From Escherichia coli O157:H7 (GTDB taxonomy: Bacteria > Pseudomonadota > Gammaproteobacteria > Enterobacterales > Enterobacteriaceae): a stretch of 64,000 bases of DNA. The stretch lies in NCBI RefSeq assembly GCF_013167455.1, contig NZ_CP038328.1; one strand, written 5' to 3'. This document shows positions 19,703 through 34,770 of the stretch, one piece after another. The notes under the pieces were generated by a model. It had not been told where the DNA came from. It searched no databases and saw only the letters and a list, made by a program, of their open reading frames with translations. Within the stretch, counting starts at the first letter, position 1. Each line of letters starts with the position of its first letter. Made by a program: the position numbers and the translations under genes.

Positions 19703-20084
19703 TTCCTGTTTGATTTACTGGACACTATAGAAGGACAGAATGCCTTCCTCACTCGAATCACATCAATTAAGGAGGTTCAACATGTTTCATTCCACAAGTC
19801 ATCAGGCTGTAATTATGGCAGCATCAGTTTGTGCCACAGACCTTTTCCGCTTCACTTTGAGCCTGATTCATTTCTACCTGACCGGCTCGCCTCTATCTTT
19901 TTAATCCCCGCTTTATCCAAATTGCATTGCCAGAATGCCGACAACAGACTGACATTCAAATCCTGACTACCTCCAATAGTCTGACCGTACACCTATATAG
20001 TTTTAATTTTCATCAATCCATTTAACTATCGTTTAATTGTTGTCACATAGGATTCTGCCGTTTTTAACAATGCAGGATAATAAG

Positions 20085-20378
20085 ATGAAAAAAATGTTAT
20101 TTTCTGCCGCTCTGGCAATGCTTATTACAGGATGTGCTCAACAGACGTTTACTGTTGGAAACAAACCGACAGCAGTAACACCAAAGGAAACCATCACCCA
20201 TCATTTCTTCGTTTCGGGAATTGGACAGGAGAAAACTGTTGATGCAGCCAAAATTTGTGGCGGCGCAGAAAATGTGGTTAAAACAGAAACCCAGCAAACA
20301 TTCGTAAATGGATTGCTCGGTTTTATTACTTTAGGCATTTATACTCCGCTGGAAGCGCGGGTGTATTGCTCACAATAA
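20085..20378 (+). CDS. bor: Bor-family outer-membrane lipoprotein (serum-resistance moron)
   Basis: MKKMLFSAALAMLITGCAQQTFTV... lipobox and near-identity to lambda Bor; opposite strand to the lysis genes. Confidence 0.85.
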   Translation: MKKMLFSAALAMLITGCAQQTFTVGNKPTAVTPKETITHHFFVSGIGQEKTVDAAKICGGAENVVKTETQQTFVNGLLGFITLGIYTPLEARVYCSQ

Positions 20379-20409: not shown

Positions 20410-20868
20410 CTATCTGCACTGCTCATTAATATACTTCTGGGTTCCTTCCAGTTGTTTTTGCATAGTGATCAGCCTCTCTCTGAGGGTGAAATAATCCCGT
20501 TCAGCGGTGTCTGCCAGTCGGGGGGAGGCTGCATTATCCACGCCGGAGGCGGTGGTGGCTTCACGCACTGACTGACAGACTGCTTTGATGTGCAACCGAC
20601 GACGACCAGCGGCAACATCATCACGCAGAGCATCATTTTCAGCTTTCGCATCAGCTAACTCCTTCGTGTATTTTGCATCGAGCGCAGCAACATCACGCTG
20701 ACGCATCTGCATGTCAGTAATTGTCGAGTTCGCCAGCTTCAGTTCTCTGGCATTTTTGTCGCGCTGGGCTTTGTAGGTAATGGCGTTATCGCGGTAATGA
20801 TTAGCCCATGACAAGCAAACGATGATGCAGATAACCAGAGCGGAAATAATCGCGGTTACTCTGCTCAT
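20410..20868 (-). CDS. Rz: Spanin inner-membrane subunit Rz
   Basis: 152 aa, lambda Rz-like. Confidence 0.85.
20469..20651 (-). CDS. Rz1: Spanin outer-membrane lipoprotein Rz1 (embedded in Rz in another frame)
   Basis: 60 aa [20 protein letters not shown]... lipobox followed by Pro-rich PPPPP tract, lambda Rz1-like. Confidence 0.8.
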
Positions 20869-21341
20869 ACCTCAATCTCTCTGACCGTTCCGCCTGCTTC
20901 TTTGAATTTTGCAATCAGGCTGTCAGCCTTATGCTCGAACTGACCGTAACCAGCGCCCGGCAACGAAGCCCAGATATTGCTGCAACGGTCGATAGCCTGA
21001 CGAATATCACCACGATCAATCATCGGTAAAGCGCCACGTTCTTTAATCTGCTGCAATGCCACAGCGTCCTGGCTTTTGGGGGAGAAGTCTTTCAAACCAA
21101 GCTGTTTACGGTAAGCATCCCACCAACGTGAAAGAAGCTGGTAACGTCCGGCGGCTGTTGATTTGAGTTTGGGGTTTAGCGTGACAAGTTTGCGAGGGTG
21201 ATCGGAGTAATCAGTGAAGAGTTCACCACCGACAATAACGTCATAACCGTGGTTACGTGTCGGTTGTCGTCCGTTATCCGTTCCTTCTGACCAAGCCACC
21301 ATATCAAGGAAAGCTTTACGCTGGGAATTTAGTACCTGCAT
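20865..21341 (-). CDS. R: Endolysin (lambda R-type lytic transglycosylase)
   Basis: 158 aa with near-identity to lambda R over most of its length. Confidence 0.9.
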
Positions 21342-21344
21342 AAA

Positions 21345-21680
21345 TTACTCCTTAGAGCCACCAAATTTGTTACCGATTACTCGCATTGCAGCCCCACGAA
21401 TAGCATCGACACCGATCAGCCCCACCCCACCACCAATGGCAACAGAAAGTGATTTAGGCCATCCGACATACTCAAGAGCGGATGCAAAGGTCAGCGTCAG
21501 AGCGCCACATAGCAAAATCTCGAGCGTTTTTCGCTTCCAGCCACCACCACCGCCAAAATAGGCGATGCGCAAACCAGCCATAACGATCGACATAATCACT
21601 GCACCCAGCGGTGTGTCTCCACGCCACCAGCTCTGAAACAACTCCAGCCAGTCCGGCCAGGTATTTGGGTTATGAGGCAT
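21345..21680 (-). CDS. Holin (putative)
   Basis: ORF 21345..21776; likely start MPHNPNTW... at 21680 after a GAGGTG Shine-Dalgarno; hydrophobic helices and Gly-rich segments; immediately upstream of the endolysin. Confidence 0.55.
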   Translation of the reverse strand: MPHNPNTWPDWLELFQSWWRGDTPLGAVIMSIVMAGLRIAYFGGGGGWKRKTLEILLCGALTLTFASALEYVGWPKSLSVAIGGGVGLIGVDAIRGAAMRVIGNKFGGSKE

Positions 21681-21723
21681 TTCGTCATCTCTCACCTCGC
21701 GATATTTGCGGGTGCTGTGTTGG

Positions 21724-21747
21724 AAATAAAAAGGCCACGCAACGTGG
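21724..21747 (-). terminator. Intrinsic terminator-like hairpin upstream of the holin
   Basis: ggccacg ttgc gtggcc followed by TTTTTATTT on the minus strand. Confidence 0.5.
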
Positions 21748-21816
21748 CCACCAGAATTATTTCCCCACCAGTTCACTTACCTCTTTCACCGTCTGATTAA
21801 ACCGCTCTGACTCAAG

Positions 21817-22131
21817 TTAAACACCTAACGCCCGACGCCCCAGCGCCATTGCTGCTTTTATTGTGGAACCGAATCCCATAAAGAAATCAGCAACCAGATC
21901 ACCAGGTCGACTACTGGCATTGATTATTTGCCTGAGCATATCCGCCGGTTTCTCGCACGGATGTTTACCCGGGTAGAACTGAACGGGCTTATGCGTCCTG
22001 ACATCGGTATAAGGCACGGAGACTGATACGGAGAAATAGCGCCGGTGAGATTTAAACTCATCCAGCAATTCAGAAGATTTGCAATTCAGTGAATCATGAG
22101 ATACCACCAACTGGTGGTAGGATTGTCTCAA
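21817..22131 (-). pseudogene. Remnant of a beta-class N6/N4 DNA methyltransferase (C-terminal part only)
   Basis: 104 aa ORF with ..FYPGKHPCEKPADMLRQIINASSRPGDLVADFFMGFGSTIKAAMALGRRALGV*, matching the HPxxKP and DPFxGSGTT-type AdoMet motifs, but lacking the upstream DPPY catalytic region; AT-rich foreign DNA begins right at its 5' end. Confidence 0.6.
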
Positions 22132-22301
22132 CTAGTGAGCTTTATACATTTAAGTGCGATGCACAGATAATAACCACGCCAATGGAATATCACACACAAA
22201 ATTGATAGAACACTAACAATAAGCCACAAAATAATTCACAATTTATTTTTACAGTGGATAAGTAGCAAAGTAGTGAATGTGAATAACGGCTAACTAAGAT
22301 G

Positions 22302-22330
22302 AAACAAAAAGCCCCACAATATGTGGGGCT
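22302..22330 (-). terminator. Rho-independent terminator ending the cargo cassette
   Basis: Minus strand agccccaca tatt gtggggct followed by TTTTTGTTT. Confidence 0.65.
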
Positions 22331-22388
22331 CCTTCGCGATTTATAGTAAAATAATCGATTCTCTAGCTGAAAAAATCTTTAAAAATTA

Positions 22389-22622
22389 TCAGCAATACGC
22401 AAGTTTTTTACCGTCATCCGGTACTAGTTTGATCACTACACCAGGATTCTTACGCTCTAACATCTGAGTTTGACTCCATGTAATACCAAAGGTTTCCATT
22501 GGAGATGCATTGCCAGCAAAGAGTTCGGCGACGACTTTAGCTGCCTCAATCTCTATCTGCTCATGATGTTTCATAAAAATCCCCTTGTTCAGCACTAAGC
22601 TGTAGTTGCTTCTTTGAAGCAT
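22389..22622 (-). CDS. Small hypothetical protein (cargo cassette gene 2)
   Basis: 77 aa ORF; more likely 61 aa from ATG at 22574 (MKHHEQIEIEAAKVV...) preceded by AAGGGGA Shine-Dalgarno; low GC. Confidence 0.4.
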   Translation of the reverse strand: MLQRSNYSLVLNKGIFMKHHEQIEIEAAKVVAELFAGNASPMETFGITWSQTQMLERKNPGVVIKLVPDDGKKLAYC

Positions 22623-22765
22623 AAAGGCAACAAAGTTTGTTACCTGAAGATGTATAAAGTAAAGCGTAGTACATTTTGTGTGTGCTTTGTGTGGATCCAG
22701 ATTGCATCAACTAAAAGAGGTTTTCAATACTTTTGTAATGATTCTGGAGAAATTAAGAATCTAAC

Positions 22766-23308
22766 TCACACTGATTGGTTAGGTAAAACGCTCCTAAGCA
22801 CCATTGCGCAACCACCTCGTTCGTAATCAGCAATGTACTCAAAACCACTTTCAGTATAGTATCTTATTGCCCCATCAACTGGACTAACTAAAGCTATCGA
22901 ATCAATAGATTCACCCTGAAGGTTCAGAAATCGTGCATATGCAGAGAAGCAATCCAAAACGATACCAAGCATCTGATGGTCTAGGTCTTCATGTGCATCA
23001 TTACGTTTTTCCATCCAGCAAATATGCACCGCATTTTTCGGCTTACAGTAACACCCAAATGCAAATCCAATAGGCTCCCCACGATAATAAACAACTAGTT
23101 TTATCGGGTGTTCTTCCATCATATCCATAAACACTCGCGACTTTAGTCCGGGATCCCACCGCAGTTTATTGTTAGCCTTGAGGAACTCCATATCTTTTAG
23201 TACCAGCTCGTCGGCATATACGAGCCCTAACGACTTATGAGGGAAGCGCCCTTTTAAATACTCTGCAACATTTTTAAATACTGCTGTTTGGAAGGCTTGA
23301 AACATCAT
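22766..23308 (-). CDS. Hypothetical protein with GNAT-like C-terminal signature (cargo cassette gene 1)
   Basis: 180 aa; C-terminus ..SIALVSPVDGAIRYYTESGFEYIADY.. resembles GNAT motif B, but no canonical Q/RxxGxG acetyl-CoA loop; roughly 40 percent GC against about 52 percent in flanking phage DNA. Confidence 0.55.
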   Translation of the reverse strand: MMFQAFQTAVFKNVAEYLKGRFPHKSLGLVYADELVLKDMEFLKANNKLRWDPGLKSRVFMDMMEEHPIKLVVYYRGEPIGFAFGCYCKPKNAVHICWMEKRNDAHEDLDHQMLGIVLDCFSAYARFLNLQGESIDSIALVSPVDGAIRYYTESGFEYIADYERGGCAMVLRSVLPNQSV

Positions 23309-23337
23309 GTCGATCCAGACGAGACGAAAGTTTAAAT

Positions 23338-23367
23338 TCTACCTACTCGCCGAATACCATTTCAATG
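23338..23367 (-). promoter_or_regulatory. Candidate sigma70 promoter for the cargo cassette
   Basis: Minus strand TTGAAA, 18-bp spacer, TAGAAT, about 25 nt upstream of the 23308 start codon. Confidence 0.35.
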
Positions 23368-23386
23368 CCACACATCTAAAATTCCG

Positions 23387-23414
23387 AAAAAAAACCCGCA
23401 CATCAGCGGGTTTT
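23387..23414 (-). terminator. tR'-like intrinsic terminator downstream of the late promoter
   Basis: Minus strand aaaacccgc tgatgt gcggg followed by eight T; about 50 nt downstream of the predicted late promoter. Confidence 0.75.
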
Positions 23415-23459
23415 CTACTTTTTATTAAAGCCGGACACACAATGCCTATCATTGAGAAA

Positions 23460-23488
23460 ATATTATCCATTTTTTTTGAAAAATGCAA
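23460..23488 (-). promoter_or_regulatory. Late promoter pR'-like (Q-dependent antitermination site)
   Basis: Minus strand TTGCAT, 17-bp spacer, TAATAT located 30-60 bp downstream of the Q stop codon. Confidence 0.6.
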
Positions 23489-23519: not shown

Positions 23520-24272
23520 TCATCTCGTCACTTTCCTCAATTGTGTCTCAGCATACGCTTCTTCCTGCCAGCACTTTGTAACCAGTTTATCAATGACATC
23601 TGCATATCCTTTGTACCACTGATAATCCGTCAGGTCTGGTACCAGCTTCTGGACATGAAGCCGCGCCAGTGTGGTTGGTAAACGGCTAAACCGGTTTCCA
23701 TTGCAACGCCCACAAACCTTATAAACAGGCGTGCCATGAAGCCTGGTTCTTTTTTCATCCAGGACAATACCTTTACCCTTACACCCTCTGCACGCTGTGC
23801 TGACTTCTCCCTTACCATGACAATGCTGACACAGTTCCTTCACCCACTCTTCCTTGATAACAGATTCCCCGCTTCTGGAGTGTTTCACCACCTCGCGCAA
23901 TACATCATGAAATCCAGTACCAGCACAATGCTCACAGCGAGCCTTACTTGCCGCAGACCTGGAATAATCAGCAAAGGCAAAATTCACAAGGTAAGGAATG
24001 ATCTGTAGCCGGGTTTCTTCACTCAATTTGTTCAATGTCGGGTTATCCAGTGCCATCGCGTAATTGAGCAGACCTTCAATCGCAAACTGAGGATCCTGAA
24101 CACCAACTTTTGCCAGGAATAAGGCAAACCCAAGCGGTGCTTTCGACTGCACCATCCCCTGCGCAGCCATTACATCCGTAATTGTTAAACCACCAGAGCC
24201 TGTCGCCGGTGCGTCATCGCTCAATTTTGGAGATTTTGGGGAGTAATATTTCGGTAAGGCTTCAAAGTTCAT
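23520..24272 (-). CDS. Q: Late-gene antitermination protein Q
   Basis: 250 aa with CxxC...CxxC zinc-binding motifs (CEHCAGTG, CQHCHGKG, CRGCKGKG), followed by promoter and terminator. Confidence 0.85.
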   Translation of the reverse strand: MNFEALPKYYSPKSPKLSDDAPATGSGGLTITDVMAAQGMVQSKAPLGFALFLAKVGVQDPQFAIEGLLNYAMALDNPTLNKLSEETRLQIIPYLVNFAFADYSRSAASKARCEHCAGTGFHDVLREVVKHSRSGESVIKEEWVKELCQHCHGKGEVSTACRGCKGKGIVLDEKRTRLHGTPVYKVCGRCNGNRFSRLPTTLARLHVQKLVPDLTDYQWYKGYADVIDKLVTKCWQEEAYAETQLRKVTR

Positions 24273-34694: not shown

Positions 34695-34770
34695 TGGTGC
34701 CGATAATAGGAGTCGAACCTACGACCTTCGCATTACGAATGCGCTGCTCTACCAACTGAGCTATATCGGC
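34695..34770 (-). tRNA. thrW: tRNA-Thr (anticodon CGU)
   Basis: Minus-strand gccgatatagctcagttggtagagcagcgcattcgtaatgcgaaggtcgtaggttcgactcctattatcggcacca; cloverleaf with GGTTCGA T-loop, anticodon loop uuCGUaa, encoded CCA. Confidence 0.95.

Follow-up and report, generated by a model that had tools for sequence, protein, structure and literature searches.

The 64,000-nt stretch of the Escherichia coli O157:H7 genome analysed here (assembly GCF_013167455.1, contig NZ_CP038328.1; hereafter the window) contains a prophage late region in which a gene for a Q antiterminator is separated from the lysis genes by a small cargo unit, a truncated methylase gene, and three predicted intrinsic terminators. 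All features of this late region are on the minus strand, and their order, from high to low coordinates, is a DUF968 gene, the Q gene (250 aa; 23520..24272), a 211-nt intergenic region, an open reading frame (ORF) designated ORF180 (22766..23308), a 191-nt gap, a second small gene designated ORF61 (22389..22574), a hairpin terminator (terminator 2; 22297..22334), an AT-rich segment of 179 nt, the 3' remnant of an N6/N4 DNA methyltransferase gene (the methylase; 21817..22131), a pre-holin terminator (terminator 3; 21723..21749), and a gene for a lambda-S-type holin (21345..21680), which is the first lysis gene. The endolysin gene (20865-21341) and Rz/Rz1 come next and are followed by a bor/iss-like lipoprotein gene on the opposite strand. 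RefSeq labels the genes between Q and the holin, inclusive, as antitermination protein, two hypothetical proteins, a methyltransferase pseudogene 'missing N-terminus', and a lambda-family holin, and many E. coli O157:H7 genomes contain a prophage that matches this region with 100% identity. The comparisons described below indicate that this locus is very probably the Q-dependent late cassette of an SfV-like lambdoid prophage, with a mobile moron inserted directly behind it.

The Q protein could be assigned to the lambda Q family. It matches PF03589 in Pfam (E=8e-53) as well as phrog_127, retrieves the lambda Q structures 7UBM and 7UBN from the PDB (E=2e-37), and aligns with lambda Q from end to end at 42% identity, the N-terminal segment that forms an exit-channel nozzle in lambda Q (PMC9388147) being part of the alignment; the helix-turn-helix body and the zinc-ribbon arm of the family are present as well. 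The arm carries a 43-residue insertion relative to lambda Q at residues of approximately 120-160, where extra CxxC motifs make up a DnaJ-like cysteine-rich module, which accounts for a sub-threshold match to the DnaJ zinc finger, the only Pfam match of this protein besides PF03589. In a Q relative of 276 aa (locus L016), the arm insertion is longer still. Membership of the Q21 family was also considered, because Q alleles of Shiga toxin (Stx) 2c phages are labelled 'Q21' in the O157 literature, and was ruled out: the protein belongs to PF03589, no match to PF06530 (the Q21 family) was obtained in Pfam, and no Q21 structures were found among its PDB matches.

A first-pass annotation of this DNA, made from the sequence alone, had placed a strong TTGCAT-17-TAATAT promoter 30-60 bp past the Q stop, followed about 50 nt later by a GC hairpin with eight U (tR'). 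The position of the promoter holds, in that the -35 hexamer TTGCAT (23488-23483), a 17-nt spacer TTTTCAAAAAAAATGGA (23466..23482), and the -10 hexamer TAATAT (23465-23460) occupy the interval 31-60 nt past the stop codon on the minus strand. The description of it as strong does not, since only 7 of 12 positions agree with the sigma-70 consensus. Sites of this hexamer quality number 1,079 in the window, the hexamers by themselves being unremarkable, and a simple promoter scan of the window did not list the site. We nevertheless judge the promoter to be real because of its homology and conservation, not because of its match to the consensus. The lambda late promoter pR' and the sequence that follows it (TTGACT-N17-TAAATT-TGACTC-AACGAT-GGG) align without a gap with the window sequence TTGCAT-N17-TAATAT-TTTCTC-AATGAT-AGG, and on this alignment the site is a homolog of lambda pR'. 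The lambda AACGAT is the -10-like sigma-dependent pause element of the lambda literature, from which the lambda +1 position was also taken. In the window, AATGAT followed by AGG (23453-23445) stands at the same offset as AACGAT-GGG in lambda, and AA.GAT.GG is invariant in relatives, so that the site has the features of a sigma-dependent pause element, with pausing itself predicted; the transcription start, at ~23453 on the minus strand, was placed by analogy with lambda. A pattern combining these elements (TTG-N20-TAnnnT-N6-AAYGATRGG) has one occurrence in the window, where none is expected (100 shuffles); lambda likewise contains it once, at pR', and every listed Q-bearing locus has it once, at a fixed offset downstream of Q. 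The test is partly circular, because both lambda and the window went into deriving the pattern. When the requirement was loosened to a 7/12 promoter with a -10-like element 5-8 nt further down and a terminator no more than ~130 nt away, a match was obtained here and at only one other site (44552-44700, plus strand), which is antisense inside yafO/yafN-like genes beside a dinB-like gene and was judged to be a chance match.

The spacer of the window promoter resembles and aligns with that of lambda (TATTGAATAAAATTGGG), and is nearly invariant in relatives. A general Q-dependent cassette has been defined in PMC9388147, and in the lambda-Q-type cassette described there the Q-binding element (QBE) adjoins the pause element, lying between -35 and -10 in lambda, and terminators are read through in a Q-dependent manner that NusA assists; we infer that TTTTCAAAAAAAATGGA is a candidate QBE. 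General statements on pR' are also given in PMC6266700 and PMC4645166. Between Q and the holin, no promoter-like site on the same strand was detected by the scan besides the promoter of the cargo unit discussed below.

The tR' hairpin (23387..23414, minus strand), written as AAAACCCGC-UGAUGU-GCGGGUUUU plus four further U, starts 50 nt past the -10 hexamer, at the distance given in the first-pass annotation. Its stem, CCCGC/GCGGG (23410-23395), encloses a 6-nt loop (UGAUGU), is extended by four A:U pairs, and is followed by U8 (23394-23387); the folding free energy (dG) of the hairpin is about -16 kcal/mol, and that of the predicted transcript -21. The simple scan listed this hairpin on the plus strand only, having missed the minus-strand terminator because four U are absorbed into the stem and too few are left in the tail; a separate scan and individual folds gave a canonical minus-strand terminator, and by these predictions 23414-23387 has the make-up of an intrinsic terminator. 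Homologous terminators after Q and before the holin are already annotated in the GenBank records of phages SfV and Ayreon. From the positions of promoter and terminator, a short RNA of ~62-67 nt is predicted (23387..23453, minus strand), which, by analogy, would correspond to the 6S RNA of lambda and to the precursor of StxS, a small RNA of Stx phages. In this predicted RNA, an A-rich single-stranded stretch AAUAAAAAGUAGAAAA lies just upstream of the tR' hairpin. An Rfam search at a permissive E-value yielded best scores of 19-27 bits compared with thresholds of 40-50, with no family at its gathering score, and the sub-threshold candidates (AgrB, Leu and Trp leaders, isrK, and fstAT) were rejected as driven by the terminator hairpin.

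A scan of viral contigs provided 80 loci with a Q at least 98% identical to that of the window, 79 of which could be anchored and were used for analysis of conservation. The 140 nt after Q exist in 39 variants among these loci, with a constant layout and almost no insertions or deletions. In 16 representative variants, TTG of the -35 hexamer, TA..AT of the -10 hexamer (relatives have TAAGAT or TAGGAT), and AA.GAT.GG of the pause element are invariant. The tR' hairpin is kept at the same position in 77 of the 79 loci, with -9.7 to -15.9 kcal/mol and a U-tract, and is built from at least four stem versions, namely CCCGC/GCGGG (with several loops), CCUCGC/GCGAGG, CCUCGC/GCGGGG with a UUCG loop, and CUCGC/GCGGG. 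A structure that is kept in place while its sequence varies is what would be expected of a terminator under selection. Column-wise covariation on the alignment was dropped because these hairpin versions are out of register, and the variants were folded singly instead. The most variable part of the module is the segment between the pause element and the hairpin, of which several unrelated versions exist. Two singleton variants from IMG/VR (L060 and L068) have decayed tR' hairpins ~110-135 nt after Q (dG of -6.9 and -5.1 compared with about -14 kcal/mol); if these prophages are otherwise intact, late transcription might leak in them.

The borders of the conserved module were located by blastn. 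Homology of the window with SfV, with Ayreon/mEp460, and with an Stx2k phage (94.7% over 913 nt) ends at 23388, inside the U-tract of tR', and homology with SfV restarts at 22126, inside the methylase gene, from where it continues through the lysis genes at 96.6%. The 1,261 bp in between (22127-23387) stand in place of SfV orf47 and the first two-thirds of the SfV methylase gene. Among loci with a near-identical Q, 13 unrelated types of sequence follow tR', including SfV-type orf47 plus methylase and a lipoprotein moron. In Ayreon (L002), this lipoprotein moron lies between two near-identical tR' hairpins AACCCGCCACTGAGCGGGTTTTTT (3389-3420 and 4066-4094), and SfV-type sequence returns after the second copy; the duplicated tR' suggests insertion or recombination at the terminator itself. 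Module junctions fall at terminator U-tracts, a pattern which shows that modules of this phage group are exchanged at these tracts. The Q module matches ~3,300 records, and this Q-pR'-tR' module is also found in some Stx2c and Stx2k phages.

The 1,261-bp segment behind tR' corresponds to what the first-pass annotation had set apart as a cargo cassette, and the blastn breakpoints, its presence in 97 of 5,426 complete E. coli genomes, and its low GC content (0.35-0.42 compared with 0.47-0.58 in the flanks) agree with a separate unit. In these genomes it is found as a single copy with identical junctions, sometimes joined to another lysis module. A promoter which that annotation had left unmentioned, TTGAAA-18-TAGAAT (23336..23365, minus strand), lies 22 nt past tR', agrees with 10 of 12 consensus positions, and has a -10 hexamer that ends 27 nt before the ATG of ORF180. 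Its hexamers (CATTGAAA and GGTARAAT) are conserved, and its 18-nt spacer is entirely different, in the window, L111, L113/114, and L016; L115 has a weaker version. In all of six diverged copies of the cassette, the -10 hexamer ends 27-33 nt before the start codon, and the copies end in an intrinsic terminator whose sequence differs between them. Judging from this pattern, the ORF180/ORF61 pair probably has its own promoter. With its own predicted promoter and terminator, differing base composition, and patchy presence among similar phages, the cassette has the characteristics of a moron, and the succession of own promoter, genes, and own terminator makes it a self-contained unit. This conserved promoter sequence lends support to the earlier proposal of a cargo insulated for lysogenic expression.

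Database searches provided little information about the two cassette proteins. ORF180 (phrog_11949) had no match in Pfam, NCBIfam, or PADLOC and no relevant match in a PDB sequence search, and the Pfam, NCBIfam, and PADLOC searches of ORF61 (phrog_11292) gave nothing usable. The AlphaFold model of ORF180 has a predicted local distance difference test score (pLDDT) of 86 and a predicted template modelling score (pTM) of 0.84, and all top matches of this model in a Foldseek search of the PDB are GNAT acetyltransferases, with a probability of 1.00 and a template modelling score of only ~0.5. ORF180 is therefore predicted to adopt a GNAT fold, and the acetyltransferase models of Pfam and NCBIfam did not place it in a GNAT sequence family. 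ORF61 accompanies ORF180 in 16 of 16 diverged loci; its counterpart in Proteus is 45% identical. An interpretation of the two as a GNAT-toxin/antitoxin pair was not adopted: ORF61 lies downstream, ~190 nt away, has a promoter-like motif of its own, and PADLOC and Pfam gave no support.

Related copies of ORF180/ORF61 were detected in Proteus, Pragia, Cronobacter, and other Enterobacterales. The pair stands behind PF06530 (Q21-family) Q genes in Proteus and another host, and behind the 276-aa lambda-family Q elsewhere. One copy of the cassette precedes an intact methylase gene, and this arrangement may have the look of the ancestral insertion. In Pragia fontium (LR134531, L013; 4001-4948), the lysis genes precede the pair, and a pyocin-S-like gene and the terminase gene come next in that order, implying that the cassette is not confined to a single moron slot of the late operon. 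In Proteus locus L008 (5959-6067), ARAGORN identified a tRNA-Met (CAT) gene within a few bases of the cassette terminator, upstream of the lysis genes.

The gap between ORF180 and ORF61 (22575-22765, minus strand) was compared with that of L016, L011, L014, and L111-L117. A promoter-like motif, TTGAAAAC-N(14-16)-GATGCAATCTG (22727-22698 in the window), is shared by every copy of the cassette whose proteins are at least about 56% identical, and ~60-70 nt past it a hairpin AGTAAC...GTTACT is found, the stem of which changes compensatorily across copies; in the window this hairpin is weak, has a U-rich tail, and lies in the ORF61 leader (22625..22645, minus strand; dG -9.2). A clear terminator-like hairpin with a U-tract is present at this place in L011, L013, L115, L119, and L122. 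RNAalifold found no convincing consensus fold for the ORF180-ORF61 leader (-0.25 kcal/mol), with only one hairpin recurring. From their sequence, the motif and the hairpin could serve ORF61 as an internal promoter and attenuator leader, or else constitute a small RNA or an operator palindrome.

Two further intrinsic terminators and a methyltransferase remnant had also been proposed between the cargo and the holin, and all three are borne out. Both terminators were recovered by the scan, and in neither case did any of 200 shuffles fold as well: terminator 2 has a stem at 22334-22306 and the tail UUUUUGUUU (dG -20.2, z = -4.4), and terminator 3, GGCCACG-UUG-CGUGGCC, has a stem at 21749-21733 and the tail UUUUUAUUU (dG -17.7, z = -3.8). 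The 7.5 kb surrounding the locus hold 18 terminator-like sites, an enrichment over the 7.7 +/- 3.3 expected. The methylase remnant matches only the C-terminal end of PF01555 (profile positions 156-209) and is a pseudogene missing its N-terminus in RefSeq, whereas its SfV counterpart is intact (350 aa). The holin gene (PF05106, E=3e-27) has its ATG at 21680, ~44-45 nt past the U-tract of terminator 3, and the scan detected no promoter-like site between the two.

The pre-holin terminator was then compared across the 41 related loci in which a lambda-S-type or EssD-type holin could be located. A hairpin and T-run within 110 nt before the holin is present in 41 of 41, formed by at least eight unrelated hairpin sequences and preceded by differing upstream content. 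Homology between loci with different upstream content resumes at the pre-holin T-tract, TTTTTATTTCC...CACCCGCA. In the window, terminator 3 arrives with the SfV-like methylase 3' end, but it is not tied to the methylase across loci. A linker of ~30 nt, TTTTTATTTCC(A)ACACAGCACCCGCA, which leads from terminator 3 to the ribosome-binding site of the holin, is common to the window (21680-21732), L025, L056, and L077 despite different upstream genes and even different holin families, and may be a conserved recombination junction. Each of the terminators marks a module boundary, and the one before the holin is universal in the group among the loci examined.

Taken together with what is known of related phages, these features would operate as follows. 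In the lysogen, sigma-70 RNA polymerase would start constitutively at pR' (~23453), pause at AATGAT, and terminate at tR', so that an RNA of ~65 nt would be released. Once the prophage is induced, Q would bind between the -35 and -10 hexamers, load onto the paused polymerase, and render it terminator-resistant, and the Q-modified polymerase would pass all three terminators (tR', terminator 2, and terminator 3) and reach the holin, endolysin, Rz, and morphogenesis genes. The cassette would be transcribable in the lysogen from its own sigma-70 promoter, because this promoter lies just past tR' and the unit has its own terminator. tR' would shield the cassette from pR', and terminators 2 and 3 in series would keep transcription from the cassette promoter out of the lethal lysis genes. 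The three terminators have three origins, namely the Q module, the moron, and the lysis-module boundary. Anatomy, homology, and conservation are observations made here, and all transcriptional behaviour in this scheme, including the strict Q dependence of late expression put forward in the first-pass annotation, is modelled on the paradigm of lambda and the Stx phages (PMC9388147, PMC7547250).

Several other readings of these data were considered. The TTGCAT-17-TAATAT site might be a chance match with the real late promoter elsewhere, as its 7/12 score, the abundance of comparable sites in the window, and its omission by the simple scan would allow; however, the gap-free positional homology to lambda pR', pause element included, the key bases invariant across 39 variants, and the lack in the scan of any same-strand alternative between Q and the holin save the cargo promoter make this highly improbable. 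It is also conceivable, though quite unlikely, that the cargo has no promoter of its own and consists of early members of the late operon that are expressed only after Q and serve lytic growth. The cassette does lie inside the late unit in the same orientation, the Pragia pair stands between the lysis genes and a terminase gene and is again in a late operon, and the L014 copy is without a recognisable -35 hexamer. In contrast, the TTGAAA-18-TAGAAT hexamers, with 10 of 12 consensus positions, are kept in several lineages in which the spacer has diverged, the distance from the -10 hexamer to the start codon stays within 27-33 nt in 6 of 6 diverged copies, every copy ends in a terminator of its own that a plain late gene would not need, and low GC content and patchy distribution are typical of morons (PMC3851460).

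Terminators 2 and 3 could likewise be mere 3' ends of modules joined by recombination, so that their stacking would be accidental and would have no selected protective role. Every terminator is indeed situated at a mosaic junction, and terminator 3 was inherited with the methylase 3' end from the SfV-like backbone; a weaker point is that lambda has no scan-detectable terminator just before S, in a scan that also missed lambda's own tR'. However, a terminator no more than 110 nt from the holin start in 41 of 41 loci, made of at least eight unrelated hairpins and placed ahead of two holin families, is the pattern expected under selection, and we regard an accidental origin as unlikely. A further reading, which would add to the proposed switch and not replace it, is that the pR'-tR' RNA is a constitutively made small RNA (sRNA) that regulates in trans and is bound by Hfq, like StxS. 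Precedents exist in StxS and in the unexplained 6S RNA of lambda (PMC7547250), the 3' hairpin is strong and ends in U8 with the A-rich single-stranded AAUAAAAAGUAGAAAA just upstream, and the distance between promoter and terminator is kept with almost no insertions or deletions in the 39 variants. On the other hand, no Rfam family reached its gathering score and the weak matches rest on the terminator hairpin, and the segment from the pause element to the hairpin is the most variable one, which argues against a conserved sRNA seed, so that such a role appears doubtful. We would give about the same low chance to a broader proposal by analogy, in which the constitutive ~65-nt RNA is an Hfq-dependent sRNA with alternative 3' halves that are swapped alongside the cargo and maybe have different host targets, and in which, separately, ORF180/ORF61 is an undescribed accessory system expressed in the lysogen, recurring behind unrelated Q families and having an internal regulatory leader.

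The interpretation of the locus as a Q-dependent late cassette with an inserted moron, which we favour, also has points that weigh against it. Besides the 7/12 consensus agreement of pR', the arm of lambda Q contacts part of the QBE, and the arm of this Q that would contact DNA is enlarged and differs from that of lambda, so that QBE recognition may not be the same. The cassette copy in L014 offers no -35 hexamer and only an extended -10, which was picked by eye. Only one 'phage' record, vB_EcoM-689R6, is near-identical, and as a partial prophage that was extracted by computation it does not prove inducibility. Finally, start site, pausing, termination efficiency, Q dependence, and lysogenic expression of the cargo are all features that we infer by analogy with the model phages.

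Comparison with known systems places the locus within a familiar framework. The lambda Q/pR'/qut/tR' system, in which qut comprises the QBE and the sigma-dependent pause element and which yields the 6S RNA, shares the Q family (42% identity), a base-for-base promoter layout, an intrinsic terminator coming next, and lysis genes downstream. The lambda pR'-tR' transcript is 194 nt long, whereas that predicted for the window is ~65 nt; the window further differs in its pause element (AATGAT instead of AACGAT), the 43 additional residues of the Q arm, and the presence of the cargo cassette, the methylase remnant, and two further terminators ahead of the holin. SfV (NC_003444), mEp460, and Ayreon share the Q-pR'-tR' module at ~95% DNA identity. 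The window and SfV are 96.6% identical from the methylase 3' end through the pre-holin terminator and the lysis genes, but SfV carries orf47 and an intact methylase in place of the ORF180/ORF61 cassette and the truncated methylase of the window. In Stx phages, the constitutive late promoter is terminated just downstream in the lysogen (Sy, Lan and Tree 2020, PMC7547250), and cargo (stx) lies between tR' and the lysis genes, as ORF180/ORF61 does in the window; StxS arises by processing of a transcript of 258 nt, and the pR' region concerned is a different one (PMC7547250). Morons such as those of the Q-to-lysis interval of SfIV (PMC3851460) and lambda bor are, like the window cassette, independent promoter-genes-terminator units with lower GC content and presence/absence variation, with the Q-to-lysis interval as a slot. 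The window moron differs in encoding a GNAT-fold protein and a 61-aa protein, undescribed in the libraries searched, and in having a promoter-like motif and a hairpin between its genes. The Q21 (PF06530) and Q82 families follow the same cassette logic, but have unrelated folds and a different QBE recognition (PMC9388147).

With regard to the surroundings of the late region, the lipoprotein gene just past Rz (20037-20378, plus strand; 'increased serum survival lipoprotein Iss' in RefSeq) has the same place and orientation as bor in lambda and represents another moron. A tRNA-Thr (CGT) gene was found at 34695-34770 on the minus strand, and tRNA-Thr is the kind of integration site used by SfV-type phages. 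The ORFs at 43700-46000 were recognised by eye and are presumably dinB/yafN/yafO/yafP-like; together with the tRNA-Thr gene, they show that the right part of the window is chromosome.

Overall, the locus represents a textbook lambdoid late switch, an undescribed instance of a well-known kind whose homologous elements have already been annotated in SfV, and in this respect it contains little new biology and nothing that would surprise a specialist. The stack of terminators is not peculiar to this locus: it is how this phage group is generally organised, and it results from the exchange of modules at terminators. What the analysis provides are base-level coordinates of pR', the pause element, and tR' for the SfV-type Q, and it draws attention to an uncharacterised two-gene cargo that encodes a GNAT-fold protein and a 61-aa protein. 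As the same Q module drives stx2c and stx2k in some Shiga toxin phages, these elements bear on toxin expression there.

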